Shown here: positions 1,081 through 28,942 of the stretch, one piece after another | How positions within the stretch are numbered: position 1 is the stretch's first letter | Layout of the letters: the number at the start of each line of letters is the position of its first letter | Source of the DNA: Minisyncoccota bacterium | Lineage (GTDB): Bacteria; Patescibacteriota; Minisyncoccia; UBA6257; 2-01-FULL-56-20 | Direction of reading: 5' to 3' | Length of the DNA: 64,000 nucleotides | Assembly: GCA_041664245.1 (NCBI GenBank) | Contig: JBAYLC010000004.1 | Coordinates: 16,932-80,931, forward strand | Made by a program: the position numbers and the translations under genes | The notes under the pieces: generated by a model | The model's input: the letters and a program-made list of their open reading frames with translations, nothing else | The model's database searches: none | What the model was told of the DNA's origin: nothing

Positions 1081-1632
1081 ATGTCTGGCAAGTTCAACTT
1101 AGTCATTGGCCTTGGTAATCCCGGCCCTGAATATAAAAAAACCTATCATAATATTGGCTTTCTTGCCACTGATTTTATTACCACTAAGTCCGGCTTCAAA
1201 AAATTCAGCAAAAGTTCGACTAAAAAATTTGAATTTTTAGAGGTTAAAAACACAATAATCTGCCGGCCCCTCACCTTTATGAATGACTCTGGCCAAGCTG
1301 TCGTCCTAATTTTGAAATATTTTAAAATAAAACCCGAAAATATTTTAGTTATTCACGATGATAGTGACTTAGAAATTGGAAAATACAAGCTTGTCTATGA
1401 TCGCGGTTCGGCCGGCCACAAAGGGATAATCTCCGTAATCAACCACCTCAAAACAAAAAAAATCTGGCGCCTCCGGATCGGAATTCGCCCAAAACCTAAT
1501 AATAACGACACAACTCCTCAAAAAAGAATAAAAGCGGAAAAATTTGTCCTTAAGGATATAAAGCCCACCGACCAAAAAATATTTGATCACATTTTCGGCG
1601 AAATTACCGAAAAAGTTATCGGGAATGAATAA
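1081..1632 (+). CDS. pth: Peptidyl-tRNA hydrolase
   Basis: LVIGLGNPGPEYKKTYHNIGF N-terminal signature and HDDSDLEIG motif typical of Pth. Confidence 0.9.
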   Translation: MSGKFNLVIGLGNPGPEYKKTYHNIGFLATDFITTKSGFKKFSKSSTKKFEFLEVKNTIICRPLTFMNDSGQAVVLILKYFKIKPENILVIHDDSDLEIGKYKLVYDRGSAGHKGIISVINHLKTKKIWRLRIGIRPKPNNNDTTPQKRIKAEKFVLKDIKPTDQKIFDHIFGEITEKVIGNE

Positions 1633-3104
1633 TCTCCATCAGGGTCCAATGTTATCTTGGTAAACTGAAAATCGACGCTTCCAAAAAAAGGGTCGGAGTT
1701 AAACACTTTTTCCAACTTCGCAGCATCTTCTCTTGTCTTTGATTCTCCGACAAGAGTAACTGGGGTATCAAAAGAGCTAAAACTAAATTTAGTTAAAACC
1801 GAATTATTAGTCACCAGTATACTATTAATTTTCTCAAACACTGCCGCCTTCGATAACTTCACGTCTCGAATTGGAGCGATTATATCTAAAGATTTATTAA
1901 AATCCTCGGCTTGTTGTTTTAAAAACTTAACCTCATTAAATTTCTGGCTATCACCATCACTAATTTTCGATTCCCGAATTAGATCATTATTTGTTTTAGT
2001 TAAAAAACCTATCGTCAAAGCGAAAACCAATAGCAACACCCCCATTGCGATTGGTGCCGCCGCAAGCCAAAATCTCAAAAAATTAAGAATCTGCCCTCGC
2101 CGATAATTATCTTCCGCCTCTACTCCCGAAAGATTTATTTCCCTATCATCTCGTCTGGAAGCAATTGATCTAATTCCGCCCCCCAAGGCCCCAAACCATT
2201 CCGAACTAACTGGCCGATCCAGTTTTAGTTCCAGATTTTTGACCCTTAGCGAAAAATTATCCTTAATTATTTTTGTAATCTCCTCTCCTAATCCAGGCGT
2301 TGCCAGAATAACATCCTCCACCGGCTCGCTCCAATGCTGTCCGTAAAAATTCAAAACTTGTCTTAAATTTCTAACCACGACTGTTCGAAATTCAGAAATT
2401 GAAATCTCTTTGCCTCCTCCTTTCAAATCTTGCCAAGAATTGAAATACTCAAAATACATTTGTCCCCGCTTTATAATAATAAAATCCAAACTTTCATTAT
2501 CCAAACTTAAGAGAATATAAGGCCGAAAACTATCTATTCCCAAAGATTGCTCACGGAAAATTCTTGTTAGCGAAAAAGATCTTGACTCAACCGCAATTAC
2601 TAAAAAACCGGCCTCTAGCAAGGCCTTGCTAAGTTCATCAACCATCGTTCGGCCAACAAACACCGAAAGAATATCAACTTTTTTGGCCGTTTCGTCGGTT
2701 CCAACCAGTTGCCACCCTGAATAATGCTCGCCAACCTGAGAAGGAGCTACCATTTGTAAATTAAGTTTAACCGCTTCCTTCAGGGCATGGCCCTCTAATT
2801 TCGGCAAACTGAAAATCTGAGTGTAAATATTAAGCGACCCCAACGAAACTACCACTAAAATCTTTTTTTGAGGCTGGTCTTTTTTAAAAATTTCCTTCTT
2901 TAATATAAAAAGGGACTCAACAAATTTATGATAATCCAAAATTACATTGGCCTTCATAATCCCCGGCGCCAATCTGATACTAGTCATCTGCCACTCCCGA
3001 TTATTTTTTAAATAAGCAAAACGCAAAGAAAAATCAGAAATCTCCAACCCGCCGATCATCGAGTTGCCCTTTAAAAAATTTAAAACTTTTCTCAAATATC
3101 TCAT
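1587..3104 (-). CDS. pilM: Type IV pilus assembly protein, PilM-like actin-fold domain fused to a C-terminal TM plus PilN-like region
   Basis: Roughly 500 aa with a TM segment (LAAAPIAMGVLLLVFALTIGF) two-thirds of the way in, followed by a PilN-like periplasmic segment. It sits at the head of the pilus locus. The ORF-track start at 3212 overlaps the upstream pilin gene; the Met at 3104 (MRYLRKV) avoids that overlap. Confidence 0.5.
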   Translation of the reverse strand: MRYLRKVLNFLKGNSMIGGLEISDFSLRFAYLKNNREWQMTSIRLAPGIMKANVILDYHKFVESLFILKKEIFKKDQPQKKILVVVSLGSLNIYTQIFSLPKLEGHALKEAVKLNLQMVAPSQVGEHYSGWQLVGTDETAKKVDILSVFVGRTMVDELSKALLEAGFLVIAVESRSFSLTRIFREQSLGIDSFRPYILLSLDNESLDFIIIKRGQMYFEYFNSWQDLKGGGKEISISEFRTVVVRNLRQVLNFYGQHWSEPVEDVILATPGLGEEITKIIKDNFSLRVKNLELKLDRPVSSEWFGALGGGIRSIASRRDDREINLSGVEAEDNYRRGQILNFLRFWLAAAPIAMGVLLLVFALTIGFLTKTNNDLIRESKISDGDSQKFNEVKFLKQQAEDFNKSLDIIAPIRDVKLSKAAVFEKINSILVTNNSVLTKFSFSSFDTPVTLVGESKTREDAAKLEKVFNSDPFFGSVDFQFTKITLDPDGDYSFPITFSVISPKM

Positions 3105-3141
3105 TTTAAAATTACTTTCACCTTTAAAATAACATAACTCC

Positions 3142-3675
3142 TTATAAGTGTATACAAGAACCCACGCACAAACACGTCCCAATAACTGGGTCGGAACACT
3201 CAGTTTTAACATCGCCTATCTTCAAACTAACCACCTCAACTTTGCTGCTATATTTATCCACCGACAACACCCCGAAGAGCACGTATGCTTTTCCGGCAAT
3301 TGTCGCCTCCGACCTGATCACAAACTGATTTTTATCAACAGAGTAATAATCATTAATACAAACTGGTGAGGTAGAAGTTGGCGGAGCAATTCGAATCTCA
3401 AGTGTCCCTTCGGTACTCAAATTGGGATTATACGTTGAAGCGCATCCTCCGTTACTCAACTCCTTGTTTCTATTTATCCTTAAAGCCGCATCCTGAACCC
3501 CCGCTAAAGCCAGCTGTGCCGCCTTATTAACATCCCGAGAACCGTAACTGGAATAAATAAAATTAAAAACTAAAAACGCCAAAGTAATTCCTACGATAAC
3601 GATCACTCCCCCAATCAAAAGTACCAACGACAACGCCGTTTGCCCGTTTTTTTGATTGAATTTATTAATCATCAT
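3142..3675 (-). CDS. Pilin-like or pseudopilin-like protein with a noncanonical leader
   Basis: N-terminus MMINKFNQKNGQTALSLVLLIGGVIVIVGITLAFLVF resembles a prepilin leader plus hydrophobic alpha1 helix, but lacks the Glu at +5. Cys-rich C-terminus. Confidence 0.4.
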   Translation of the reverse strand: MMINKFNQKNGQTALSLVLLIGGVIVIVGITLAFLVFNFIYSSYGSRDVNKAAQLALAGVQDAALRINRNKELSNGGCASTYNPNLSTEGTLEIRIAPPTSTSPVCINDYYSVDKNQFVIRSEATIAGKAYVLFGVLSVDKYSSKVEVVSLKIGDVKTECSDPVIGTCLCVGSCIHL

Positions 3676-3714: not shown

Positions 3715-4743
3715 CTACGGACTCCAGTTCACCGTCACTTCATCAATTCTCGGCGTTAACGCCTGGTCTGGATCTGATTTCAATCTAACCAGATACTTAA
3801 AGTATCTCTTATTAGTGAAATCAGAAACGTTGTCAATCTTCACGCGGTATACTCCCGGCGAGTCAAAAACCGTAGCGTAAGAATTATAATAAGATGAAAT
3901 CGAGCCGTTCGGCCCCAAGAAAATCCACGGTCCGCTCGTTGAATTTGCCGCGGCTAGCTTAAAGCTCACACCAGTAGTAACTGGTAAATTTCCTTTCCAA
4001 ATAATCGAATTTATTTGAACCCCTTTAACTATGCCAGTATCAATAATAGCCGACTCCAGTGTTCCGTATGTTGAAGTTGCAAACCAATCCGTCGCCACTT
4101 TATAATCAGAGCCGTTTAATAAACACTCAGAGGGAGTGCCGCAACTGAAACTAATCCAGCCGGCAATATCATTCCAAGCGTAATTATAAAAATTCGATGG
4201 CGGTTCATCAATCCCAGTTGAAGAAGACGGGTATACGCCCACTCCCCAATAAACCGTAGTAGTTGCATGCTGAATTTCATTCCAAACCGTACTGCTTCCA
4301 GCAAAACTAATCCAACCGATTGCATCATTCCACGCCCAGCCAGAAACATGGCCCCGGCCATCATTTTTAACTCCCCAATTTCCAGCCGGACCAGTGCAAT
4401 TACTAGAACCCCCAGGCGGCAAAGTTGCGCAATTTAAAACAACTTCCCCAATTGAAGAACTCGCCCAGCCCTCTAAGTATTTTGAATGAACAATAACGTT
4501 ATGAGTACTATGAAAATCTATCCAGCCAATTGGACCGCTCCAACCCCAAGAATAATTTGAATTGGAATAAAGAGTGGAAGGGCTATAAAGAGAATTAACT
4601 GTTGGGTGAATATTGGTTCCCGGGTCTGGATTGGCCTTAGTAACCCTAAAACCGGTTACTAAAAAAACCGTCAAAATAACTCCGCCCAAAACAAAAACGC
4701 TGAATATTCCGACTGTTTTATTTCCTTTAAGATACTTTTTCAT
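3715..4743 (-). CDS. Membrane-anchored secreted protein with Trp-rich GWIxF repeats; candidate pilus tip or adhesin subunit
   Basis: N-terminal anchor MKKYLKGNKTVGIFSVFVLGGVILTVFLVTGF. Repeated motifs GWIDFHS, GWAWNDAIGWISFAGSS, YAWNDIAGWISFSCGT, GWSGPIGWIDF. Confidence 0.4.
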   Translation of the reverse strand: MKKYLKGNKTVGIFSVFVLGGVILTVFLVTGFRVTKANPDPGTNIHPTVNSLYSPSTLYSNSNYSWGWSGPIGWIDFHSTHNVIVHSKYLEGWASSSIGEVVLNCATLPPGGSSNCTGPAGNWGVKNDGRGHVSGWAWNDAIGWISFAGSSTVWNEIQHATTTVYWGVGVYPSSSTGIDEPPSNFYNYAWNDIAGWISFSCGTPSECLLNGSDYKVATDWFATSTYGTLESAIIDTGIVKGVQINSIIWKGNLPVTTGVSFKLAAANSTSGPWIFLGPNGSISSYYNSYATVFDSPGVYRVKIDNVSDFTNKRYFKYLVRLKSDPDQALTPRIDEVTVNWSP

Positions 4744-4748
4744 TTATA

Positions 4749-5426
4749 TTAAATTCCTAAAATTTTTATTGAACCGTTGGCATTTGAATAATCAATATTT
4801 GATGAGGTCGAAAAATTATTGGTGCTGGTCGCAACCAATAACTCGTTCGGCCCGCCCGACCAATCCGCTTGGTCAAAAATTTTACTCCGGAAACGAACTA
4901 AAAACGTCTGCAAACTGCTCGTTGTCGCCCCCGACCAGCCGTAAGTAACAGTCAAGCGTCGAATTGATGGATCAAACACCGTAAGGGCGGGGCAAGCGGA
5001 AACCGGATTAGGAGAAATAGTAGTCGTGGCAAAATTACCCAATGCGTTTCGGCAAACTGCCTCAATTTTAAAATATCGCGTGTAAGTTGTGGTGCCGTTT
5101 ATAATTGACTCCGGCCCCGACATCGCTTTAAAAGGAGAAGTACCGGTAGTCATCGTGGTTGCCATATAATAAAAATAATTAGTCGACGTTGCCATAATAT
5201 TATCAAGATTATGCCAGTCGCTTGCCGAAAAAACCTTTACCCTTTCAATCAAATCTAGTCCTAGTCCCACCGCAAACTTTGACTCATTAGCCGTTTTATT
5301 AGTTTTTAGAGTCGGAATAATAATCGCTGCCACCGCCCCGATTAGAAGAACCCCAACTGCTATTGCTATCAAAATCTCAATCAAAGATTGCCCCCGTCGA
5401 CCATAAATTTTAAACTTTTTTTTCAT
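4749..5426 (-). CDS. Minor pilin or pseudopilin
   Basis: Prepilin-type N-terminus KIYGRRGQSLIEILIAIAVGVLLIGAVAAII (Gly cleavage site, Glu5, hydrophobic helix). Confidence 0.55.
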   Translation of the reverse strand: MKKKFKIYGRRGQSLIEILIAIAVGVLLIGAVAAIIIPTLKTNKTANESKFAVGLGLDLIERVKVFSASDWHNLDNIMATSTNYFYYMATTMTTGTSPFKAMSGPESIINGTTTYTRYFKIEAVCRNALGNFATTTISPNPVSACPALTVFDPSIRRLTVTYGWSGATTSSLQTFLVRFRSKIFDQADWSGGPNELLVATSTNNFSTSSNIDYSNANGSIKILGI

Positions 5427-5463: not shown

Positions 5464-6735
5464 TTATTGCGCTGTTCCAAAAACAATATTTGATATCGTA
5501 GAAGTATTTCCTGCGTCATCAATCGCTTTGATGGCAAAATAATATCTAGTGCCTATAACAAGACCCGACACAGTCCACGTCTCTGGGCTTCCCGCAATTT
5601 GAGGCAAAGACAAATCCATCTCTCGGGAATAAGAAGACCAATTACTGTCAAGAATTGAAATTGGCGAAGTGGAATACCTTAAATCATAAATCGTGGCGGT
5701 GCCGCTGTTACCATCGTCGCCAGGAGCAATCCAAGTGAGCAAAACCCTACCAGTAGAACCACCGCCTCCAGCTGCGAGTGAGGAGAAAAGTGAAGCAAGT
5801 GAAACATCAGTCTGGGTAGCGGCAAAACCACCAATATCGACATTGAGACTAGCTATCGCAGCTGGCCGAGTGGTATCCAAAGCCAAAGCTTCCGTGGTGG
5901 CCGAAGCCGGAGCTGATTGACCAGAGGCATTTCCTCTAGCATCATAAGCATCAACAGTATAAGTGTAAGTGGTAGATGGACTAAGACCAGAGTTAGAATA
6001 ACCAGGGCTAAAAACAGTAGCGATTGGAACTGGATTGCCATCTCGATAAATCCGATATCCAGCAACGCCGACATTATCGGTCGAGGCCGACCAAGAGAGA
6101 TCGATTCGAGAAGAAGATATAGGAACAGCCAAAAGGTTTGCGGGAATAGTAGGTGAAATATCATCAGGCAAAGGCGGAACATAAGGAGGCGTACTCGAAG
6201 AAGGGGTTGAAAAACTTACCACCCCTATTGGCGAAACCGAAATAGTTGACGAAACATTCGGATTGCTTTTCAGAAAAACCGAAAAAGTGGCCGACGCTGA
6301 AGATCCGACAAGAAATCCTTGAGATGCGGAAAATTTAATAAGAATTTTTTTATACTGCGACAAACAGCTAGAACTAGAATTATTAAAATTAGGGGAGGAA
6401 AAATTAATATTATCAGGCAATGTATATTTATTTTTAGGAGTATTAATATTTAGTTCATCATATAAACCGAAAAATAACTGGCTTGAACTGCAGAACGGAT
6501 TTCCCAACCCAACTTGCCAAGCCCATCCGCTATCCTGAAATTTAGATTTATCTCTTGCTGTATTTAAAAGCGAAACAATTTTTTCAACGGTTGCATTAAA
6601 TTCCTTAAGCTTATTTTGTGGTAAAAGATTTAAAAAAGTCATTCCGATTAAAATCGCCATTATCACCATCACAATAATAAGTTCTATTATTGTAAACCCA
6701 TTTTTATTATTATGTTTTTTAATATTTTTAACCAT
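5464..6735 (-). CDS. Large minor pilin with fibronectin type III domains
   Basis: Prepilin N-terminus KNGFTIIELIIVMVIMAILIG. C-terminal FN3-like segments (PTIPANLLAVPISSSRIDLSWSASTDNVGVAGYRIYRDG; TWIAPGDDGNSGTATIYDLRYS). Start taken at the Met at 6735; the track gives 6780. Confidence 0.6.
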   Translation of the reverse strand: MVKNIKKHNNKNGFTIIELIIVMVIMAILIGMTFLNLLPQNKLKEFNATVEKIVSLLNTARDKSKFQDSGWAWQVGLGNPFCSSSQLFFGLYDELNINTPKNKYTLPDNINFSSPNFNNSSSSCLSQYKKILIKFSASQGFLVGSSASATFSVFLKSNPNVSSTISVSPIGVVSFSTPSSSTPPYVPPLPDDISPTIPANLLAVPISSSRIDLSWSASTDNVGVAGYRIYRDGNPVPIATVFSPGYSNSGLSPSTTYTYTVDAYDARGNASGQSAPASATTEALALDTTRPAAIASLNVDIGGFAATQTDVSLASLFSSLAAGGGGSTGRVLLTWIAPGDDGNSGTATIYDLRYSTSPISILDSNWSSYSREMDLSLPQIAGSPETWTVSGLVIGTRYYFAIKAIDDAGNTSTISNIVFGTAQ

Positions 6736-6812
6736 ATTTATATGTTTAAATTTTTTATTTAAATTTCGTATTGGCATCATTTGATTATTAATAAAAAACT
6801 TTATCTATTTAT

Positions 6813-8024
6813 TTAAGAAAATTGCGCCGTCAATTGATAAATCGGAATTATTATCGAAAGAGCCACCAGCCCCACTAATAACCCCATGAATAAAAGCAAT
6901 ATTGGCTCCAAAAAAGAAACCAGGGATTTTATCGCCGACTCGGCTCTCGAGGCATAAAACTCAGAAAGCGTCTGTAAAAGATCTTCTAAATGTCCGGCCC
7001 TCTCCGATGCCGCAATCAAATTAGTAACCAGCTTCGGGAAAACTGTTTCTTTTCTGAAAGCCTCTCCTATTGTTAACCCTTTTGCCAAACCCTCTTCGCT
7101 GATTCGAAGCAAACTCGCCCGAAATTCAAGAACATTTACCGTCTCTGCTGCTATATTGAGCGATTGTATAATCGAAAGTCCCGCCTTCATCAACGAACTG
7201 GTTGTCGTTGCAAAACGTTGCACCGCCAACTCCCGATAAACCGTTTTGACTAAAGGTAATCGGCTAAACATTCGCTGGGCCAATTTCCGCCCCACATCGA
7301 ATTTCCAAAAAAACACTGCCGAAAAAACCACAATAATAATCAGGCCCGGAATAAATAGAAGCGCATGAGCATTTATAAAAAGCCCGATCCCAAACACCAC
7401 CCTTGAGAAAAGCGGCGGATTAATTCCTCCATCGGAAAAAACTTTCGCTATCTTAGGAAGTGCGAAAGTTACCAAAAAAATAAATATTGACATTGACGTC
7501 ACGAGCAAGATGACCGGATAGACCAGCGCCGATCGGATGCTATTCCGCAACGCTGCTTCCCTGCCAAGCGACACGCTTAATTCCTCAAATGTTTGCTGTA
7601 AATTTCCTGATGCCTCTGCGGCTTTAACTAAATTTATAAACACTGGCGAAAAAATTCTTGGATACCTTGCGAAAGCCGCATAAAATGGCTGGCCCCGCCC
7701 CAAATTGTCCCGAACCTCAAGTAAAAAGTTTTTCAGGGCTGGTTTATCAAAGTCAGAAATCAAAATATTTATTGCTGAAAGCAAATCAGTTCCCACTCGT
7801 AACATCAAAGAAAGATACCGAGTCAAAAAAATCTTGTCGGTTAAATTAATATTCCCAAAAATCCGCCGTGCCCCAAAACCCTCAGATTCTTTAATCGGCT
7901 TTACCGAAATCGGCCTCAGTTCTTTACCGGCTAGATATTGGAGAGCCTGAGTGAAATCATCGACTTCCAAATCCCCCTCGCTAATTTTTCCGCTTTTATC
8001 CGTTGCTAAATAATGAAAGAGCAT
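6813..8024 (-). CDS. pilC: Type IV pilus platform protein PilC (GspF family)
   Basis: 403 aa polytopic protein with duplicated GspF-type domains, located between the pilin genes and the PilB ATPase. Confidence 0.8.
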   Translation of the reverse strand: MLFHYLATDKSGKISEGDLEVDDFTQALQYLAGKELRPISVKPIKESEGFGARRIFGNINLTDKIFLTRYLSLMLRVGTDLLSAINILISDFDKPALKNFLLEVRDNLGRGQPFYAAFARYPRIFSPVFINLVKAAEASGNLQQTFEELSVSLGREAALRNSIRSALVYPVILLVTSMSIFIFLVTFALPKIAKVFSDGGINPPLFSRVVFGIGLFINAHALLFIPGLIIIVVFSAVFFWKFDVGRKLAQRMFSRLPLVKTVYRELAVQRFATTTSSLMKAGLSIIQSLNIAAETVNVLEFRASLLRISEEGLAKGLTIGEAFRKETVFPKLVTNLIAASERAGHLEDLLQTLSEFYASRAESAIKSLVSFLEPILLLFMGLLVGLVALSIIIPIYQLTAQFS

Positions 8025-8140: not shown

Positions 8141-9856
8141 CTATTCCCTAATGACCCGCAAAACCTCATCAATAGTGGTCATTGCTAATTCAACTTTTTT
8201 TAGTCCGTCCTCAAACATCGAAATCATTCCGTTTTCTCTGGCAACTTTGTGCAATTTTTCCAAATTAAAATCCGGGCTAATTATGGTTTTTTTCACCTCC
8301 TCACCAACATCTAAAACTTCATATATTCCCAGCCGTCCTCGATACCCGGTCATCCCACAACTTGAACATCCTTTTCCATGAAAAAAGTTTTTTGGTAGCT
8401 TAACCTTATTTGGGTCAAGATTTAGTTGTTCTAGTTGATTCATAATCACCTTGGTAATCTCTGGACTCGGCTCGTAAGAATATATACAGGCCTGGCAAAC
8501 CCTCCGCACTAAACGTTGGGCAATAATAACATTCAAAACCGAAACCACTAGAAAAGGCGGCACTTCTAAGTCAAAAAGTCGGGGTACCACCGTTGGCGCA
8601 TCGTTAGTGTGAAGTGAGGAAAGAAGTAAGTGGCCAGTCAAAGCCGCCTGCACTGCAATTCCCGCCGTCTCCGCGTCTCTAATCTCACCAACCATTATAA
8701 TATTCGGATCTTGCCTTAAAATTGCCCTGAGACCGGAAGCAAAAGTTATCCCCGCCTGAGTATTTATCTGGGTTTGATTAACATATCGCATATTGTATTC
8801 CACCGGATCTTCGACGGTAACTATATTCACCGTCGGTCTGTTTAAAATATCCATCATTGCGTAGAGCGTTGTTGATTTTCCTGATCCCGTTGGCCCGCAG
8901 CACAAAACCATTCCGTAAGCTTTCTTTAAGTTGTCGGCGACAATTTTCTCCATATCCGGAAACATTCCGATCTCGGTAAGCGATAGTGGTTTTTGAGCCG
9001 CCTCAAGAAGCCTCATCACAATTTTCTCTCCATAAAATGTTGGCAAAACCGAGACCCGAACATCTATCACCTGGCTGCCGACCTGATAATGAAAACGTCC
9101 GTCTTGTGGTTTATAATGTTCGTCAATCTTTAACCCAGACAAAATTTTAATTCTTGCCGTGAGAGCCGCGTGAATCGCTTTCGGCATCCGCATTATTTCA
9201 AAAAGAATTCCATCAATCCGATAGCGCACAATCGTTACATCTTCCATAATTTCCATATGAACATCCGACGCTCGCGAAGCAATCGCATACGACATCAAGT
9301 TGTCCACGATCGAAACTATCGGCAGAAGCGAGGCAGACTCCTCAACACTCTTTGCCTGTCCTCTCAGTGATTCCTGAACATTATTTTCAATTAATTTCTT
9401 AAAATCTTGCGCCGACTGTGAACCGTAAATAGAAAATCCCTTATTCAAATCACTACCCGTGGCAAAAAAGGGATTTATTTTTGCGTTCAAATGCTGGGAA
9501 AGAAATTTAATTGTCTCTAAATCGCTAGGATCGCTCATTGCCACATCGAAACTTCCGTCTGGCTCTTTCTTAAAAACAATAACTTCCCGCTGCCTAGCAG
9601 CACCCTCTTCGAGTAGCTTAATCGCATCCTTGTCTATCCCCTGAACCTCAAGGTTAGCCAAAGAAACCCCCAGCATCTCCGCTAAAAGATTATTCAAATA
9701 ACTTACTTCAACAATTTTTAGAGATATCAAAGAATCAAGCAATCCTTGATTTTTTCTTCTTGAATCTTCGTAGATGGTGTCGAATCGCTCGGCCGTAATC
9801 AAACCCTCCTGCACTAATCTGTTTTTCAACTGGGGAACTGGTATTGGTATTCTCAT
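8141..9856 (-). CDS. pilB: Type IV pilus assembly ATPase PilB (GspE family)
   Basis: Walker A GPTGSGKST, Asp and His boxes, tetracysteine motif (CQAC...CSSCGMTGYRGR), N-terminal GspII-like domain. Confidence 0.9.
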   Translation of the reverse strand: MRIPIPVPQLKNRLVQEGLITAERFDTIYEDSRRKNQGLLDSLISLKIVEVSYLNNLLAEMLGVSLANLEVQGIDKDAIKLLEEGAARQREVIVFKKEPDGSFDVAMSDPSDLETIKFLSQHLNAKINPFFATGSDLNKGFSIYGSQSAQDFKKLIENNVQESLRGQAKSVEESASLLPIVSIVDNLMSYAIASRASDVHMEIMEDVTIVRYRIDGILFEIMRMPKAIHAALTARIKILSGLKIDEHYKPQDGRFHYQVGSQVIDVRVSVLPTFYGEKIVMRLLEAAQKPLSLTEIGMFPDMEKIVADNLKKAYGMVLCCGPTGSGKSTTLYAMMDILNRPTVNIVTVEDPVEYNMRYVNQTQINTQAGITFASGLRAILRQDPNIIMVGEIRDAETAGIAVQAALTGHLLLSSLHTNDAPTVVPRLFDLEVPPFLVVSVLNVIIAQRLVRRVCQACIYSYEPSPEITKVIMNQLEQLNLDPNKVKLPKNFFHGKGCSSCGMTGYRGRLGIYEVLDVGEEVKKTIISPDFNLEKLHKVARENGMISMFEDGLKKVELAMTTIDEVLRVIRE

Positions 9857-9871
9857 AAAATTATTTAAAAA

Positions 9872-10543
9872 TTACTTTCCCAAAAAAAGTCCGATAAAAT
9901 CTCCCAGAGATAATTGCCCCCAAACATATTCCAATCCAAAAATCGGAAGCAACCAAATCTTTACTATGATAGCAAAAATTGCTATCGGCAACCAAAAATA
10001 AAAAAGCGGCAGCCGTCCCTTGGAAAAAATCGTGTAGACCACGGAAAACAAAACTCCAAAAATCAGAATAGCCGCCCAAAAAAACAAAAATCCCGGATAC
10101 CCTGAGAGAAAAGTCCCGAGCGCGATAAGTTCAACTTCTTCGTTTTCAAAAAATCTATTACCAAATCTTTTATTCAAAAATTTCGCCAACCGGCTTACTA
10201 AAATAGAAGCCAGAAAAGCGACTATCCAAAAAATAAAAAAATGGACAAATACATATGACAAAAAATAAGAGATCGGGGCATAAGGCGGCAAAAGGCCTCT
10301 GCTAAGCGGATTACTCTCCCAAACTTGATACTGCTTGTAAGATATATAAACATTAACTGCTACCACAATCACAAACAAAATCAACCACAAAATCTTTAAA
10401 TACTTCTTTACCGTTTCTCGGGAAAATTTTCCTTCTCTTTTTGAGTCCAAAAATCGCCGGCCCCAAAAAATCTGTGCCGCAAAAAGCAAAATCAAAGCCA
10501 CTAAATTAAAATATTGAGCTACTGCAAACATTCTCAAAATCAA
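9872..10543 (-). CDS. pilD: Prepilin peptidase (A24 family)
   Basis: 223 aa polytopic membrane protein immediately downstream of pilA and adjacent to pilB. Size and position are typical of PilD; the assignment rests on context and topology. Confidence 0.65.
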   Translation of the reverse strand: MILRMFAVAQYFNLVALILLFAAQIFWGRRFLDSKREGKFSRETVKKYLKILWLILFVIVVAVNVYISYKQYQVWESNPLSRGLLPPYAPISYFLSYVFVHFFIFWIVAFLASILVSRLAKFLNKRFGNRFFENEEVELIALGTFLSGYPGFLFFWAAILIFGVLFSVVYTIFSKGRLPLFYFWLPIAIFAIIVKIWLLPIFGLEYVWGQLSLGDFIGLFLGK

Positions 10544-10556
10544 TTATAACACAAAA

Positions 10557-10576
10557 AGCGCCCTAAGGCGCTTTTT
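10557..10576 (-). terminator. Intrinsic terminator hairpin between pilA and pilD; probably a partial, attenuating terminator
   Basis: AGCGCC-CTAA-GGCGCT perfect hairpin flanked by an A-tract and a T-tract (aaaaAGCGCCctaaGGCGCTtttt). pilD starts right after it on the same strand. Confidence 0.55.
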
Positions 10577-10601
10577 GTTGAATAATAATTAATACTCTTT
10601 T

Positions 10602-11222
10602 CTAGAGAGCTAGACCAGGATTAGTCCCAACCTCATACAAAGTAACGCTGTTCCCCCCATCATTAACCGAACTACTCGAAAACTTCTGGCTTTCAATTCT
10701 AGTATTCACCTCATATGTGTTATTCGTTCCAGTCATATATGCGTAATAGAAATCATCACTCGTCGTAGTTACGGTAGGACCAAAAGTATTTGGCACAACA
10801 GGGTCAACTGGTAACTGCGGTAGCGGCGAACCAGTACTAATTTTAGTAAAATCAATCGGAATCCATCCGGTTCCATTAATCGCCCGAGAAGTAGTCGCTC
10901 CAACAGTTGCAGCCCCAGCCCCTAACGACGGGAAACGAAACCCGCACTGATTACCAGCAGTACCAAGCGTAGAAGAAGCGTCCAAAGAAGTGAAGCACCA
11001 TGTCGTACTTGTTCCAAGATACGCCGCCGGCACATCAGAGAGATAAAGCGCAATAGCGCTATTCAAAGTCGACAAATCCGAAAACCTGGTCGTATCCCGT
11101 GACTGCCTTAGCAACTCGGCCGGATTTAAAGTCAAAATAACGACCGTCGCGAGAATGGCAATAATACCAATAACAATCAGAAGTTCAATAAGAGTAAAAC
11201 CCTTAACTTGCTTATTTTGCAT
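10602..11222 (-). CDS. pilA: Major type IV pilin
   Basis: Canonical KGFTLIELLIVIGIIAILATVVILTL prepilin leader and alpha1 helix. Own promoter upstream and hairpin downstream. Confidence 0.8.
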   Translation of the reverse strand: MQNKQVKGFTLIELLIVIGIIAILATVVILTLNPAELLRQSRDTTRFSDLSTLNSAIALYLSDVPAAYLGTSTTWCFTSLDASSTLGTAGNQCGFRFPSLGAGAATVGATTSRAINGTGWIPIDFTKISTGSPLPQLPVDPVVPNTFGPTVTTTSDDFYYAYMTGTNNTYEVNTRIESQKFSSSSVNDGGNSVTLYEVGTNPGLAL

Positions 11223-11273: not shown

Positions 11274-11403
11274 CAAAGAAAATAGGCTGATTAAAAAATT
11301 GTGGATAACTCCCGATTTCCTATGAACGCAGTGAATAAAGGAAATCAAGGACCCCGCCCGCTGGTGAGATATTCATTTTCCCCATTAGCGATTTGCCATC
11401 TAG

Positions 11404-11475
11404 TGCGTGTGGAAGGAATCGAACCTTCGACCTCTGTCTTATCAGGACAGCGTTCTACCACTGAACTACACACGC
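11404..11475 (-). tRNA. tRNA-Ile (anticodon GAT)
   Basis: Minus-strand cloverleaf GCGTGTGTAGTTCAGTGGTAGAACGCTGTCCTGATAAGACAGAGGTCGAAGGTTCGATTCCTTCCACACGCA. Anticodon loop CTGATAA. No encoded CCA. Confidence 0.85.
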
Positions 11476-11499
11476 GTTCTTTTCTACCTTCCACCTTTG

Positions 11500-11571
11500 T
11501 GCGCGGTAGAAGGATCGAACTTCTGACCTCTTCGATGTCAACGAAGCGCTCTACCACTGAGCTAACCGCGC
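11500..11571 (-). tRNA. tRNA-Val (anticodon GAC)
   Basis: Minus-strand GCGCGGTTAGCTCAGTGGTAGAGCGCTTCGTTGACATCGAAGAGGTCAGAAGTTCGATCCTTCTACCGCGCA. Anticodon loop TTGACAT. Confidence 0.85.
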
Positions 11572-12521: not shown

Positions 12522-13580
12522 ATGCTTATAAAAATGGACGAAAAAATTTATTACAATGCCATAAACATTGCCCTTGGCAGTGACTACCGAAAATTAGGAA
12601 AGTTGATAGAAAAGTCCGGCTGTTGGGAAATTGCTTGGGAAAATTTAGGTGTCGCCGAAAAAAATAAAATCAATCCGGAAAAACTTTGGGAGAAACTTCT
12701 AAGGTCAAAAATTGAGCTGACCTTAATAAACGAAAAAAAATACCCCTCCTTACTTCGCGAAATATCCTTTCCGCCTTTTGGAATTTATTCTATCGGCAAT
12801 TTTTCGGCTCTAAATCAAAAATATAAAATAAGCATCGTCGGTACCAGAAAGGCCACCGAGCAAGGCAAGGAAATCGCTCGAGAATTCGCCAGAAATCTCG
12901 GGCAAAACAATTTCGCCATAATAAGCGGTTTGGCTTTAGGAATTGACGCCGCTGCTCACTCCGGCGCCCTTGACGCTAACGCTCCCACCATCGCCGTCCT
13001 CGCCAACGGCCTTGATCATTTCTATCCCAGTTATAATTCTAAATTGGCTGAAAAAATAATCTCAAGCAATGGACTAATAGTTTCAGAATATCCAATAGGA
13101 AGCCCAACCCTCCCTTATCGATTTATAGAAAGAAATAGAATCATCAGCGGCCTTTCCGCCGGCACCCTTGTTATTGAAGCCCCCGAAGGGTCTGGCTCGC
13201 TCGCCACCACTAGATTTGCCCTTGATCAAAATCGGGAAATTTTTGTTACTCCCGGACCTCTAAAACATCCAAATTTCTCCGGCTCCCATAAATTAATCCG
13301 CCTTGGCGCCATCCTAGTTACCTCTCCTGAAGAAATTATTGAGTCTCTCGCCCCAGAAATTCTCGAGGGTAAAAACAGCCCACTAAACCAGCTAAATCTA
13401 TTAAATAGCCTAGAAGAAAAGAGAATATACGAAATTTTAAAAAACAGCGCTAAACCAATCACAGTTGACAAAATTATTGAACTATCTAATCTTAATGCCA
13501 AAATCATCAATCAAACTCTTACCTTCCTGACTATAAAGAATATAATCAGTGAAACTGAGGCTGGGTTTGTCGTTCTATGA
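12522..13580 (+). CDS. dprA: DNA processing protein A (Smf), competence-associated
   Basis: Rossmann-like DprA core (IVGTRKATEQG, ISGLALGIDAAAHSGAL, EAPEGSGSLATTRFALDQNREIF) plus a C-terminal winged-helix. The stop overlaps the topA start (ATGA). Confidence 0.85.
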   Translation: MLIKMDEKIYYNAINIALGSDYRKLGKLIEKSGCWEIAWENLGVAEKNKINPEKLWEKLLRSKIELTLINEKKYPSLLREISFPPFGIYSIGNFSALNQKYKISIVGTRKATEQGKEIAREFARNLGQNNFAIISGLALGIDAAAHSGALDANAPTIAVLANGLDHFYPSYNSKLAEKIISSNGLIVSEYPIGSPTLPYRFIERNRIISGLSAGTLVIEAPEGSGSLATTRFALDQNREIFVTPGPLKHPNFSGSHKLIRLGAILVTSPEEIIESLAPEILEGKNSPLNQLNLLNSLEEKRIYEILKNSAKPITVDKIIELSNLNAKIINQTLTFLTIKNIISETEAGFVVL

Positions 13581-19193: not shown

Positions 19194-19275
19194 GCCCGGG
19201 TGGCGGAATTGGTAGACGCGCACGACTCAAAATCGTGTGAGGAAACTCATGCCGGTTCGATTCCGGCCTCGGGCA
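19194..19275 (+). tRNA. tRNA-Leu (anticodon CAA)
   Basis: GCCCGGGTGGCGGAATTGGTAGACGCGCACGACTCAAAATCGTGTGAGGAAACTCATGCCGGTTCGATTCCGGCCTCGGGCA. Long variable arm; anticodon loop CTCAAAA. Confidence 0.85.
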
Positions 19276-25588: not shown

Positions 25589-28500
25589 CTAAGAACCAGC
25601 TGCGTAAGAACCAGAGAACAACTGAATCGGAATACCCACGCCAGCGATTCTTACATTAACCGTACCGCCAGATTCCGCCGTAGTGTAAGTAGCATCAGTC
25701 ACCGCATTAAGGATTGCTGAAAGTCCTTGAGCCACACCGCTTACAGCAACGGCTGTATTGCTCAAAGTATTAGCCCTAAGCGTAAATGTCTTTGTAGTAC
25801 CAGCGCTGACAATATAGTTATTGAAGTCAAACGAAACTGAAGTTGTGGTAGTTGCAGACTGAGTCACATTAGTGCCGGCAGTCGGATTAAACAACGTAAA
25901 TGTGGCAGGTAACGAAAGGCTATTAGCCGAACCGCCAATAGTAACCACAAATGACTGAAGTTTAACCGATCCAAGTGGGTCCGCCGTGAAGCTAATAGTG
26001 GCCAACTCATCAGTTGTAGCCTTAGCTCTACCAGACGTAACTCCAATCGGAGTCGCCGATACTGTAAGTTTACCTCTCACAATCGTCTGAGCATTACCAG
26101 TCGCAGCAGTGAGAGTAACCGTCGAACTGTTATTCGAGGTACTACCACGAGCCACCACTACTTCTGCCGCTGTATCAAGAAGCGGGTCAGTAGAAGTTGA
26201 CGCAGCAAGCTTAAACACATGAGTAGTGTTGTCAGACGCACCGCTCGAGCTATAGTCAGACACATCGCCCTTCAGAACCAAGGTAATTGATCCAGATTTC
26301 GGAACTACGATCGGATTCTGGAAACTAAACAGGCGGTAATAACCCACACCAGCCACATCTGAGCCCTCGGTATTGTTGCTTGTTGTCGGTTCGCCACCCG
26401 TAGCCAACAATGTATTCAAATCCCTTGAATCGTACAACTTCAAACTAGCAAAGGAAGCCTTAACCGAAGGAGAAGCAACCGTCTGGAAAAGATAAAGTTG
26501 AGAAACCTTTATATCTTCAATATTGGTTGTTTCGGAGAAACGGTAAGCGGCCAAGGTATTTCCAGTTGAACCCATCACAATCTGGTTAGCTGACGGAGCA
26601 GTGGAGTCCAATGTAACAGTCAATGTTGACTGTCCAGCCACAACCACACTTTGTCCGGTTCTTGCTGTGCAAGAAACCGCAGCATAGGTCGTCGCGCCAG
26701 ATCCCGTGCAACTCGCAAGTGTTGTAGCCGCCGTATGTGTACCAGCCACCGCAGATGAAAGTATATCAACATAAACATCCACTATCTTTGTTTGTCCAGC
26801 TGGAATATTTAGTTGACCGGTAAAATTATAGGTAGCAGCCGATAAAGTCGGTTGAACTGTCCCAAATTGAGTATTACCAACCATCAGCTTAAGGTTTTGG
26901 CTGCTAGTCGTAAGGCCACCCAATGTAACCCCAATACTCATGAGGTTCACCCCTTCCGCCGTTGAAGCCGCTATTGAGTAAGAACCAATTTTAGCGTTAG
27001 TTGTGCCAGCTGAATACGTTTGAGTTCCTACTGCGCTATTTCTAGCTGTAGTAGCTGAGCTAGTAACTCTAGTTAACACGCTGCCAGTTGCCGCGCCGCT
27101 TGATGCCGTCGCGCTTGATGTCTGGCCACGCAAGTTGCTTGACCCAGTCAACACCTTTGCCACAATCGTCGTGAAATCAGCTGTGGTTTGGATATCTCCT
27201 CGTAAGGTAAGCACCCGAGTTGTATTCGCCGGAACAATGTAGCTAATCGGAGAAGAACTCTTACCAAAACAATTTGTAGCCGTTGAAGATGCATAAGTTG
27301 CAGCACTATCAGTACAATCCACTGCTAACACTGTCGCCAAATTGGAAATTGTGCTCCCAACTTGAAAACCAGCATCATCAACTAAACTAACGTTCTTGAT
27401 TTGGCTATTTACTCCGAGAGTCGCTCCCGTGAAAGTCAAAGAAAATCCGAGCCACTGAACCTTAACTGGTTCGCCAGCCGCATAAATCTTGTATTTCAAG
27501 AGAGGTGTTGCCGATCCGCCGGCAACAATATTCCCAGTCGGTGTATCAGAAGCCAAAGTGGTTGTAAGTTGTCCAGGTTGAATAGTCACCTGCATTGAAC
27601 TTGCCGAACCGCCGTTGATAGTCACCGAAACCGGTACTCCATACTGGCTATCAACTCCCCAAACATCATACGAGTTCAAGAGGTTGAAAGTGAAATTGTA
27701 GTTTGGACTACCCGCAATGTCGGCGTAGACTTGCAAATTGCTGTTTCCGGTAGAAATAACCGCCGGAGCAGAACTGAAATCAAAAAACGCCACTCCATCA
27801 GCCGGAACCATCGCTAAGGTTTGGCCAACTTGAGTACCGTTCACAAAAAGCTTCACATTCTTAATGTCGCTCTTTGTCGCCGAACCAGTCACTTTAAAAG
27901 TAATTCCTTTAAGGTTAACTGGACTGTTCGTAGCTGTAATCGTCCACTGCGAAATCATTTGATTCTGATCGCCAGCATAAACTGATGTCTGCGGTGTACC
28001 CGAAGACACAGTTAAACTCGCAATTGACGGATTTGAGACCGTAGTCGCTGTGAAAACATTTCCACTCAAGGGAAAAGCCCCCACTGGAGTAACAGCCACG
28101 TTATTGCTGTCAACTGCCGTTATATCGGTAACCGCCATCAAACCAAAAGAGATAGTGTTTCCATCCGTAACTGTTCCTGGGTCAATAGCTAATTCAACAT
28201 TCCTGGTCTGACCGGCATTAATGCCTAATCCCAAACCATTGAATGTAATCACGCCACCAGAAAGCGAACTATACTGGGCGATTACCTTACCGTTTTCGAT
28301 TAGGTATGCCGCAGAAATACCACTATCCGAAACTATACCCAACTTCTTGAATTTCAAGTCGTTGACTGTAATTCCGCCAGCATTGCCAGCTGTAAGAGCA
28401 ACTCCTAAAACAGGCAATCGCGCCGAGGAAGCAATGAAAGAACTAACTGCAGGATTCTTCGAAGAGAGTCCTACTGAAAGACCAGAAACCGGAACCGGAT

Positions 28501-28942
28501 TTGGATTCGGGTTAGGATTTGGATTCGGATTTACTCCCATCGCGTTAACAAAAGCGCGAGTCTTTGGACCAAAATAACCAGCCGCCGGAGCGATTCCGTT
28601 GGCTGCTTGGAATTTACCCAAAGCCGCTTTTGTCATTGAACCGAAATAAGCAGTCGGAGCAGTAATATTCAAATACCCTCCTGTGATTAAGAACTGCTGA
28701 AGTGAAGTTACGTCGGCACCTCTGCTTCCAAGGGTGAGGTCCTTAGTGAAGCTGTAGGAACCAGTAACTGGAGTGCCTCCTTGAGCAGTCGCCAACTGAG
28801 CATTAAGCGCTTGAATTTGCGCCATAAGCGAATTAATCATCGCTTGAAGCTCAGCTGTTGTCTGTCCATGAGCCACTGGTGTGACGCCTGCGATAACCAT
28901 CGCAAAAAGCGCCAATGAAACTAATTTTTTTCCTATATTCAT
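25589..28942 (-). CDS. Large secreted cell-surface protein: signal peptide, peptidoglycan-binding domain, (PN)n linker, long beta-rich Ig-like repeat region
   Basis: Signal peptide MNIGKKLVSLALFAMVIAGVTPVAHG. PG_binding_1-like segment (GSRGADVTSLQQFLITGGYL...GSMTKAALGKFQAANGIAPAAGYFGPKTRAFV). NPNPNPNPNPNPVPVSG linker. Roughly 900 aa that is S/T/A/G/V-rich with no Cys. Confidence 0.6.
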   Translation of the reverse strand: MNIGKKLVSLALFAMVIAGVTPVAHGQTTAELQAMINSLMAQIQALNAQLATAQGGTPVTGSYSFTKDLTLGSRGADVTSLQQFLITGGYLNITAPTAYFGSMTKAALGKFQAANGIAPAAGYFGPKTRAFVNAMGVNPNPNPNPNPNPVPVSGLSVGLSSKNPAVSSFIASSARLPVLGVALTAGNAGGITVNDLKFKKLGIVSDSGISAAYLIENGKVIAQYSSLSGGVITFNGLGLGINAGQTRNVELAIDPGTVTDGNTISFGLMAVTDITAVDSNNVAVTPVGAFPLSGNVFTATTVSNPSIASLTVSSGTPQTSVYAGDQNQMISQWTITATNSPVNLKGITFKVTGSATKSDIKNVKLFVNGTQVGQTLAMVPADGVAFFDFSSAPAVISTGNSNLQVYADIAGSPNYNFTFNLLNSYDVWGVDSQYGVPVSVTINGGSASSMQVTIQPGQLTTTLASDTPTGNIVAGGSATPLLKYKIYAAGEPVKVQWLGFSLTFTGATLGVNSQIKNVSLVDDAGFQVGSTISNLATVLAVDCTDSAATYASSTATNCFGKSSSPISYIVPANTTRVLTLRGDIQTTADFTTIVAKVLTGSSNLRGQTSSATASSGAATGSVLTRVTSSATTARNSAVGTQTYSAGTTNAKIGSYSIAASTAEGVNLMSIGVTLGGLTTSSQNLKLMVGNTQFGTVQPTLSAATYNFTGQLNIPAGQTKIVDVYVDILSSAVAGTHTAATTLASCTGSGATTYAAVSCTARTGQSVVVAGQSTLTVTLDSTAPSANQIVMGSTGNTLAAYRFSETTNIEDIKVSQLYLFQTVASPSVKASFASLKLYDSRDLNTLLATGGEPTTSNNTEGSDVAGVGYYRLFSFQNPIVVPKSGSITLVLKGDVSDYSSSGASDNTTHVFKLAASTSTDPLLDTAAEVVVARGSTSNNSSTVTLTAATGNAQTIVRGKLTVSATPIGVTSGRAKATTDELATISFTADPLGSVKLQSFVVTIGGSANSLSLPATFTLFNPTAGTNVTQSATTTTSVSFDFNNYIVSAGTTKTFTLRANTLSNTAVAVSGVAQGLSAILNAVTDATYTTAESGGTVNVRIAGVGIPIQLFSGSYAAGS

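Follow-up and report, generated by a model that had tools for sequence, protein, structure and literature searches.

More than 1,200 modular pilins, many of them from Candidate Phyla Radiation (CPR) phyla, were described by Raynaud et al. (2021), and the pairing of IPR012902 with the fibronectin type III (FN3) domain (IPR003961) is among the 15 most frequent of their architectures (PMC8179133). Modular pilins were proposed to be tip-exposed and adhesive, with IPR003961 classed among the pilin modules of 'no clear function' (PMC8179133). For PilB and PilC of Streptococcus sanguinis, adhesion has been demonstrated and tip exposure proposed (PMC8179133), while PilX2 of Nanosynbacter lyticus TM7x (Saccharibacteria) is needed for efficient host binding, not for filament formation (PMC11623550). 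The locus described here lies in a stretch of 64,000 nucleotides (64 kb; hereafter the window) from a Minisyncoccota bacterium (assembly GCA_041664245.1, contig JBAYLC010000004.1, positions 16,932 to 80,931). It encodes a putative minor pilin with two FN3 domains at its C-terminal end, here called the FN3 pilin.

CPR bacteria are thought to need attachment to other cells, and of their surface machinery the type IV pilus is the most widely conserved. The way in which partners are recognised is largely unexplained, and the locus offers a clean and compact example of a modular minor pilin. On balance, it is considered probable, though only slightly so, that the FN3 pilin is a modular minor pilin of a CPR type IV pilus which displays its FN3 domains near the tip, a loop of the second domain (FN3b) being the likely contact with a ligand. 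This interpretation draws on the prepilin motif, the folds, the position of the gene in its operon, the indel of a whole module and the pattern of sequence variation. These features suggest that the protein would be incorporated into the pilus and would act as an adhesin by binding a ligand; a location near the pilus tip is plausible.

Prepilin motif and pilin head

A preliminary description, made from the DNA sequence alone, had placed a pilin gene at 5464-6780. The open reading frame (ORF) is present in the ORF listing of the window (438 amino acids (aa), minus strand) and contains all of the strings quoted for it (KNGFTIIELIIVMVIMAILIG, SRIDLSWSASTDNVGVAGYRIYRDG and RVLLTWIAPGDDGNSGTATIYDLRYS). 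Its real start, judged by comparison of orthologous sequences, is most likely the ATG at 6735 (M16 of the 438-aa ORF) and not that at 6780, because the upstream ATGs are disrupted in locus L002 and both orthologues begin at the equivalent Met. P0002, the 90% identical orthologue encoded in L002, begins MVKNIKK, and the two ATGs upstream of it lie in another frame, with stop codons ahead of them; P0005, an orthologue of 326 aa, likewise begins at the Met equivalent to M16. A start at M16 gives a leader of 13 aa and a precursor of 423 aa, and residue numbers in the full-length protein are counted from it. The gene is made up as follows.

5464..6735, minus strand: probable true coding sequence of the FN3-bearing minor pilin, 423 aa plus stop (orthologues P0002 and P0005, region upstream of the gene in L002)
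6697..6735, minus strand: class III (prepilin) leader MVKNIKKHNNKNG, basic, with Gly-1 at its end (sequence, PF07963 and TIGR02532; cleavage predicted)
6541..6696, minus strand: alpha-1 helix of the mature pilin (FTIIELIIVM...), with F+1 and E+5 (AlphaFold2 (AF2) helix at residues 16-65, predicted local distance difference test score (pLDDT) 88-98; profile like alpha-1 of solved pilins)
6202..6540, minus strand: globular pilin head, FimU/GspH fold (predicted fold)
6151..6201, minus strand: Pro/Ser/Thr-rich linker SSSTPPYVPPLPDDISP (composition; low pLDDT)
5869..6150, minus strand: FN3a, canonical 'DNVGV...GYRIYRDG' module, residues ~196-289 (Pfam fn3, E 4e-16)
5467..5868, minus strand: FN3b, C-terminal, of the subtype 'WTAPGDDGxxGTAxxYDLRYS...YYFAIKxxDxxGNxS', residues ~290-423 (Pfam, AF2 and PDB matches)
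5749..5844, minus strand: lineage-specific insertion of ~23 aa inside a ~32-aa A-B span (..DIGGFAATQTDVSLASLFSSLAAGGGGSTG..) of FN3b (alignment A7)

The prepilin site reads MVKNIKKHNNKNG/FTIIELIIVMVIMAILIG and has the canonical form ...KNG/FTIIE, with Gly-1, Phe+1 and Glu+5. Pfam N_methyl (PF07963) matches the protein at 33.3 bits (cut-off 21.2) and NCBIfam TIGR02532 (IV_pilin_GFxxxE) at 25.9 bits (cut-off 16.3). The hydrophilic leader, its Gly end, F+1, E+5 and the hydrophobic stretch that follows are the features of the type IV pilin/class III signal peptide (IPR012902), and the canonical leader and alpha-1 helix of the preliminary description are thereby borne out; removal of the leader and processing as a prepilin are predicted from these features. 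Conservation of Gly-1 and Glu+5 among homologues had been put forward as a check on this assignment. Across 38 members of the head family, E+5 is invariant and F+1 nearly so, whereas position -1 is mostly Gly, with Ala in several members. Such an Ala (..xAFTLVE..) is found in head-family proteins P0179, P0183, P0195, P0210, P0230, P0246 and P0258, which hints that some CPR prepilin peptidases may be less demanding at the cleavage site.

AF2 analysis of an 80-sequence head alignment gave a model with a pLDDT of ~90 for residues 11-180, and the predicted structure has the head fold characteristic of FimU, GspH, EpsH and FimT. Furthermore, the gene is the first of a core minor-pilin block, as are fimU in fimU-pilVWX and gspH in gspH-I-J-K, the identities of the last two genes of the block being taken from their position. 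The head is assigned to the FimU/GspH class by this predicted fold and by synteny, the sequence models of the class matching below threshold.

The FimT-type fold of the head, together with the neighbouring dprA gene, would also suit a DNA receptor of a competence pilus, in which the subunit captures extracellular DNA like the GspH-family pilin FimT. This is held to be most improbable. The acidity of the appended part counts against it: linker, FN3a and FN3b have isoelectric points (pI) of 4.1-4.3 and more D+E than K+R, and the reading was down-weighted for this reason. FimT binds DNA by way of an arginine-rich patch of head and tail, whereas the C-terminus of the FN3 pilin runs into the linker and has no such tail; FimT genes are also typically orphans, whereas that of the FN3 pilin lies inside a minor-pilin operon (PMC8897410).

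Of 1.84 billion cluster representatives, 4944 matched a profile of the head (residues 1-189) at E<=1e-3; most of these are 150-190 aa in length. At least 300 aa were counted in 32 of 149 head-family representatives (21%), nearly all of which possess an N-terminal pilin head and a C-terminal extension. When 38 long members, the FN3 pilin and its two orthologues included, were scanned with Pfam, the modules identified were NHL/SGL propellers (6), fn3 (6), Laminin_G_3 lectin (5), Kelch (3), DUF2341, PT-HINT and others. Distant Parcubacteria loci encode, in this order, a major pilin, PilB and PilC, with a plain, unextended head-family pilin (158-175 aa) further downstream. The pilin head is a recurrent carrier of grafted modules, and the combination of FN3a with FN3b is peculiar to the small lineage from which the window comes.

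FN3 domains and their variation among orthologues

Pfam fn3 (PF00041) matches the FN3 pilin in two stretches (59.3 bits, E 4e-16, cut-off 25), and both the prepilin and the fn3 matches are far beyond chance. FN3a ('STDNVGV..GYRIYRDG') shows 55-67% identity with repeats found in multi-FN3 surface proteins from many phyla; its fold is proposed from these matches, the AF2 model of FN3a being of low confidence. FN3b, when scanned alone (C-terminal 138 aa), also matches Pfam fn3 above the cut-off of 25 (29.4 bits, E 9e-7). Its AF2 model has a pLDDT of 82.7, its top 50 Foldseek matches in the PDB are all FN3 domains and its homologues, small secreted proteins or repeat proteins, have precomputed fn3 matches; the seven-stranded beta-sandwich of the FN3 fold is predicted for it. 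Separate alignments were used to model the head and FN3b; in the full-length model, the FN3 portion is not reliable. Mixed multiple sequence alignments (A3, A4 and A6) for a full-length AF2 run were rejected, as MAFFT had placed pilin heads and FN3b homologues on FN3a.

The tandem FN3 extension of the preliminary description is therefore present, by Pfam for both domains and by AF2 for FN3b, but it is tandem in position only. FN3a and FN3b share just 26 aa of similarity, around strands F and G, so that, judged by their sequences, they are different FN3 subfamilies and not the product of a tandem duplication. The FN3b-type homologues (P0271-P0299) have an almost invariant W-x-A-P-G-D-D-G ... 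D-x-x-G-N-x-S signature. The subtype occurs mostly in small secreted proteins (130-230 aa), some with FlgD_ig or type IX secretion system (T9SS) sorting domains, and its conserved acidic loops could be a candidate metal site.

A full-length homology search, which was otherwise swamped by multi-FN3 'chitodextrinase' proteins, identified only P0001, P0002 and P0005 as true orthologues. Scans of GTDB genomes and JGI metagenomes with the head alignment gave no further orthologues, the only matches being distant pilins that share the generic alpha-1 pattern. A word-indexed search with the head alone returned only P0005 and P0121, and it was the exhaustive HMMER search that revealed the head family. 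P0005 is without FN3a owing to an exact 94-aa in-frame indel, the flanks of which repeat the FN3 boundary motif D-x-x-x-P-x-x-I/L-x-x-L, and it retains FN3b together with the insertion; FN3b is kept in all three orthologues. Because P0005 lacks FN3a as a clean module and keeps FN3b, FN3a behaves as an optional spacer and FN3b as a conserved terminal unit.

Identity and the ratio of nonsynonymous to synonymous substitution rates (dN/dS) were computed against the 90% relative, locus L002, with the following results.

Major pilin: identity 100%, dN/dS 0.00 (dN = 0)
PilB: identity 99.7%, dN/dS 0.01
PilC: identity 99.3%, dN/dS 0.02
Other genes of the minor-pilin block: identity 94-96%, dN/dS 0.09-0.17
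FN3 pilin, whole gene: identity 90%, dN/dS 0.25
FN3 pilin head: identity 94.7%, dN/dS 0.14
FN3a: identity 89%, dN/dS 0.32
FN3b region: identity 84%, dN/dS 0.31

The FN3 pilin has the lowest identity and the highest dN/dS of the operon, yet it is under purifying selection. The gene is thus not hypervariable, and the variability that the preliminary description expected of a tip adhesin is found in a mild form only, as this elevated ratio, the gain or loss of an FN3 module and a hot spot in one loop. That loop lies between strands A and B of FN3b, where the three pilin orthologues have ~23 extra residues in comparison with 26 homologous FN3b-type domains (alignment A7), and its core, (V/I)SLAS(L/I)xSSLAxGGGG, is conserved among them. 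In residues 289-333, comprising the A strand and the insertion, 16 of 45 positions differ from P0002, against 29 of 378 elsewhere (Fisher p 1.4e-6).

The FN3 domain is a generic beta-sandwich and often an inert spacer. It might therefore be that the FimU-like pilin performs the adaptor and priming job while the FN3 pair is passive bulk without a specific ligand, for example a steric stop limiting retraction through the envelope or S-layer, or a shield of the tip complex. This would be in keeping with the dispensability of FN3a in P0005, with purifying selection over the whole gene and with the cork that large globular minor-pilin domains have been proposed to form in M. xanthus (PMC7541494). 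It would also fit the listing of IPR003961 without a clear function, which leaves the earlier suggestion that the FN3 modules point to a protein or glycan ligand a weak one (PMC8179133). However, passive bulk does not predict an insertion with a conserved core that changes fast and is specific to the pilin copies of FN3b, nor does it predict lectin and propeller modules on the same carrier head in relatives, and this explanation is thought unlikely.

Proposed assembly and ligand contact

In the favoured interpretation of the FN3 pilin as a module-bearing tip component, the 13-aa class III leader would be removed by a prepilin peptidase, presumably encoded outside the window. The mature alpha-1 helix and the FimU/GspH-fold head would then be built into the pilus, first among four core minor pilins of which the others are a PilV-like protein and the products of orf342 and orf177. 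These four would prime assembly on PilC and finish at the distal end of the fibre, with the FN3 pilin at the base of the tip complex. Pilins of the FimU/GspH class belong to the complex that primes assembly and forms the tip (PMC7541494), FimU and GspH being proposed adaptors in or just below the tip (PMC8897410, PMC7541494). The Pro/Ser-rich tether, the optional spacer FN3a and the conserved terminal FN3b would be displayed beside or beyond the pilus tip, where the fast-changing, lineage-specific A-B loop of FN3b would be the likeliest contact with a surface ligand, probably on a host or partner cell.

A number of points weigh against this interpretation. The tip location of the preliminary description has indirect evidence in its favour, namely the tip exposure proposed for modular pilins, the predicted FimU-class fold of the head, the place of the gene in the operon, the variable loop and the swapping of modules within the head family, but in the literature pilins of the FimU/GspH class are adaptors found where the tip complex begins and not at its apex (PMC8897410, PMC7541494). 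The class assignment itself has no backing from sequence models above their cut-offs: Pfam GspH (PF12019) gave no match to the FN3 pilin at E<=0.1, TIGR01708 matched residues 27-88 only and far below threshold (33.5 bits, cut-off 80), and a sequence-profile search of the PDB placed FimU only at E 0.019, with matches restricted to alpha-1 helices. The FN3 pilin has no recognisable binding domain beyond its FN3 domains, which may be inert; just three orthologous sequences were present in the databases searched; and nowhere does dN/dS reach 1. The model of the A-B insertion is of low confidence (pLDDT below 55), and the segment is perhaps disordered. The hot-spot signal comes in part from a register shift of 1 aa, and dS is also raised in the region (0.41), so recombination or alignment error could have contributed to it. 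Finally, a regular-expression search of the 64 kb found no prepilin-peptidase motif (GxGDxK).

The lack of a visible peptidase gene is also what would be expected if the pilin-like N-terminus served only as a membrane anchor, as in a pseudopilin, holding the FN3 domains in the cell-wall space without ever polymerising. Bulky modular pilins fit poorly into the body of a fibre, and PilX1 and PilX2 of TM7x were reported to lack predicted PilD signals (PMC11623550). On the other hand, the G-1/F+1/E+5 site is canonical and E+5 does not vary across the head family, the gene is embedded in a minor-pilin block straight after pilC and the head has the predicted fold of a bona fide fibre subunit; a mere anchor is considered quite improbable.

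The FN3 pilin taken as a tip-displayed minor pilin invites a broader proposal, which must be regarded as doubtful. A FimU/GspH-class adaptor, and not a PilY1-type protein, might be the general scaffold on which CPR/Patescibacteria swap host-recognition modules, with recognition in the present case by the amphipathic A-B loop with its SLASLFSSLAAGGGG core and reach tuned by the FN3 spacer. If true, partner-cell specificity would be encoded in ~30 residues and could be read directly from metagenomes. The focusing of variation in one loop of the terminal domain suggests where determinants of host specificity might be sought in metagenomes, and makes loop-swap and binding work easier.

Pilus operon, remaining window and related systems

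The FN3 pilin gene is part of a type IV pilus operon on the minus strand, in the order major pilin, orf223, PilB, PilC, FN3 pilin, PilV-like, orf342, orf177 and PilM/N. This order is conserved in loci L001-L004, the three other contigs with orthologues included. Proteins identical to the PilB and the major pilin bear the NCBI name 'Candidatus Paceibacterota bacterium', which places the source among the CPR/Patescibacteria. The other genes of the operon are as follows.

10602..11222, minus strand: putative major pilin, 206 aa, MQNKQVKG/FTLIE (N_methyl 33.5 bits; 100% identical in L002)
9872-10543, minus strand: orf223, 223-aa polytopic membrane ORF lying between pilB and the gene of the major pilin (family-less; dN/dS 0.23)
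8141..9856, minus strand: PilB/GspE extension ATPase (Pfam T2SSE, E 5e-119, plus MshEN)
6813..8024, minus strand: PilC/GspF platform protein, immediately upstream of the FN3 pilin (Pfam T2SSF, E 1e-44)
4749..5426, minus strand: second minor pilin, PilV-like, G/QSLIE, E+5 present (N_methyl 21.7 bits; TIGR02523 PilV 28.8 bits, below cut-off)
3715..4743, minus strand: orf342, third gene of the minor-pilin block, 342 aa (hydrophobic N-terminal segment, no E+5; putative minor pilin by position only)
3142..3675, minus strand: orf177, fourth gene of the block, 177 aa, G/QTALS, no E+5, in a PilX/GspK-like position (family-less; hydrophobic N-terminal segment; weak Class_IIIsignal match; putative role)
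1587..3212, minus strand: PilM-PilN-like fusion, 541 aa (TIGR01175 pilM, E 4e-8, and Pfam PilN, E 0.005, both below cut-off)

The product of orf342 has no Pfam or NCBIfam family match. A W..(I)GWI.F motif occurs in it three times (GPIGWIDFHS, WNDAIGWISFAG and WNDIAGWISFSCG), and it is 60% identical to its counterpart in L001, a pace of divergence that matches the FN3 pilin's in this distant comparison. No Pfam match to a C-terminal beta-propeller of the PilY1/PilC type was obtained for the FN3 pilin, orf342 or orf177. The PilM-PilN ORF is PilM-like in its N-terminal part and PilN-like in its C-terminal part; its first ~70 nucleotides overlap orf177, and its true start may be further downstream (531 aa are called in L003). 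No paralogue resembling the retraction ATPase PilT was identified in the 64 kb, where tblastn with PilB returned PilB alone. The dN/dS of orf223 is about as high as that of the FN3 pilin, and the gene sits where a prepilin peptidase might be expected; it was rejected as a candidate for this enzyme, having no Pfam support and being without the GxGDxK motif.

A strong terminator-like hairpin (10551-10578, minus strand; 12-bp stem with 6 GC pairs and a T-rich tail) is located just past the stop codon of the major pilin gene, before orf223 and pilB, and could keep the ratio of major pilin to the machinery and minor pilins high. A promoter scan gave a match count not above that of shuffled sequence. 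The genes for tRNA-Ile(GAT) and tRNA-Val(GAC) are located at 11403-11571 (minus strand), immediately upstream of the pilus operon, with three more tRNA genes in the window at 19194, 52918 and 63854. The divergent genes dprA (12522-13580, plus strand) and topA adjoin the operon. They belong, with gyrA, gyrB, parA, parB, ftsK, clpB, pnp and relA/spoT, to the ordinary chromosomal genes that occupy the remaining window. A 1117-aa ORF (25589-28942, minus strand) has only a PG_binding_1 domain, near its N-terminus, and a 733-aa ORF (39851-42052, minus strand) has no Pfam match at E<=1e-5.

With a pilin module, a linker and a domain not specific to type IV pili, the FN3 pilin has the composition by which Raynaud et al. 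(2021) define modular pilins. Since pilin-plus-FN3 architectures were already catalogued in that study, no new type of system is described here (PMC8179133). What is new, in a modest way, is the assignment of the carrier to the FimU/GspH fold class and the recognition of this head as a common carrier of modules in CPR bacteria, together with the gain or loss of an FN3 spacer as a clean module and a hot spot localised to a loop. No FN3-type modular pilin is known to have been characterised, and to the architecture catalogued by Raynaud et al. (2021) the present protein adds a carrier with a predicted FimU/GspH fold, two unrelated FN3 subtypes and a lineage-specific loop. A novel CPR pilus described in a 2026 preprint was set aside as a relative: it assembles by donor-strand exchange, has an RbmA-like FN3 anchor and bears no relation to the FN3 pilin.

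Like the FN3 pilin, PilB and PilC of S. sanguinis are minor pilins with a grafted module (vWA and lectin, respectively), in their case in a monoderm type IV pilus. Their modules, a vWA domain with a metal-ion-dependent adhesion site (MIDAS) and a concanavalin A (ConA)-like lectin, have known binding chemistry, whereas FN3 has none, and the heads differ and show no sequence relationship. PilX1 and PilX2 of TM7x share an ecological setting with the FN3 pilin and are CPR minor pilins with C-terminal accessory domains; however, in place of FN3 they carry a 7-bladed propeller and a jelly roll, and the PilD signal that they are reported to lack is present in canonical form in the FN3 pilin (PMC11623550). 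CofB of enterotoxigenic Escherichia coli (ETEC) resembles the FN3 pilin in having a pilin module, a flexible linker and beta-rich domains and in its proposed location at the tip. It differs in belonging to a T4b system, in forming an assembly-initiating trimer and in bearing beta-repeat and beta-sandwich domains that are not FN3 (PMC8179133). The solved structures compared here, those of P. aeruginosa FimU, type II secretion system GspH/EpsH and Legionella FimT, are of single-domain chains of ~125-150 residues, to which the FN3 pilin adds ~245 aa of linker and two FN3 domains.

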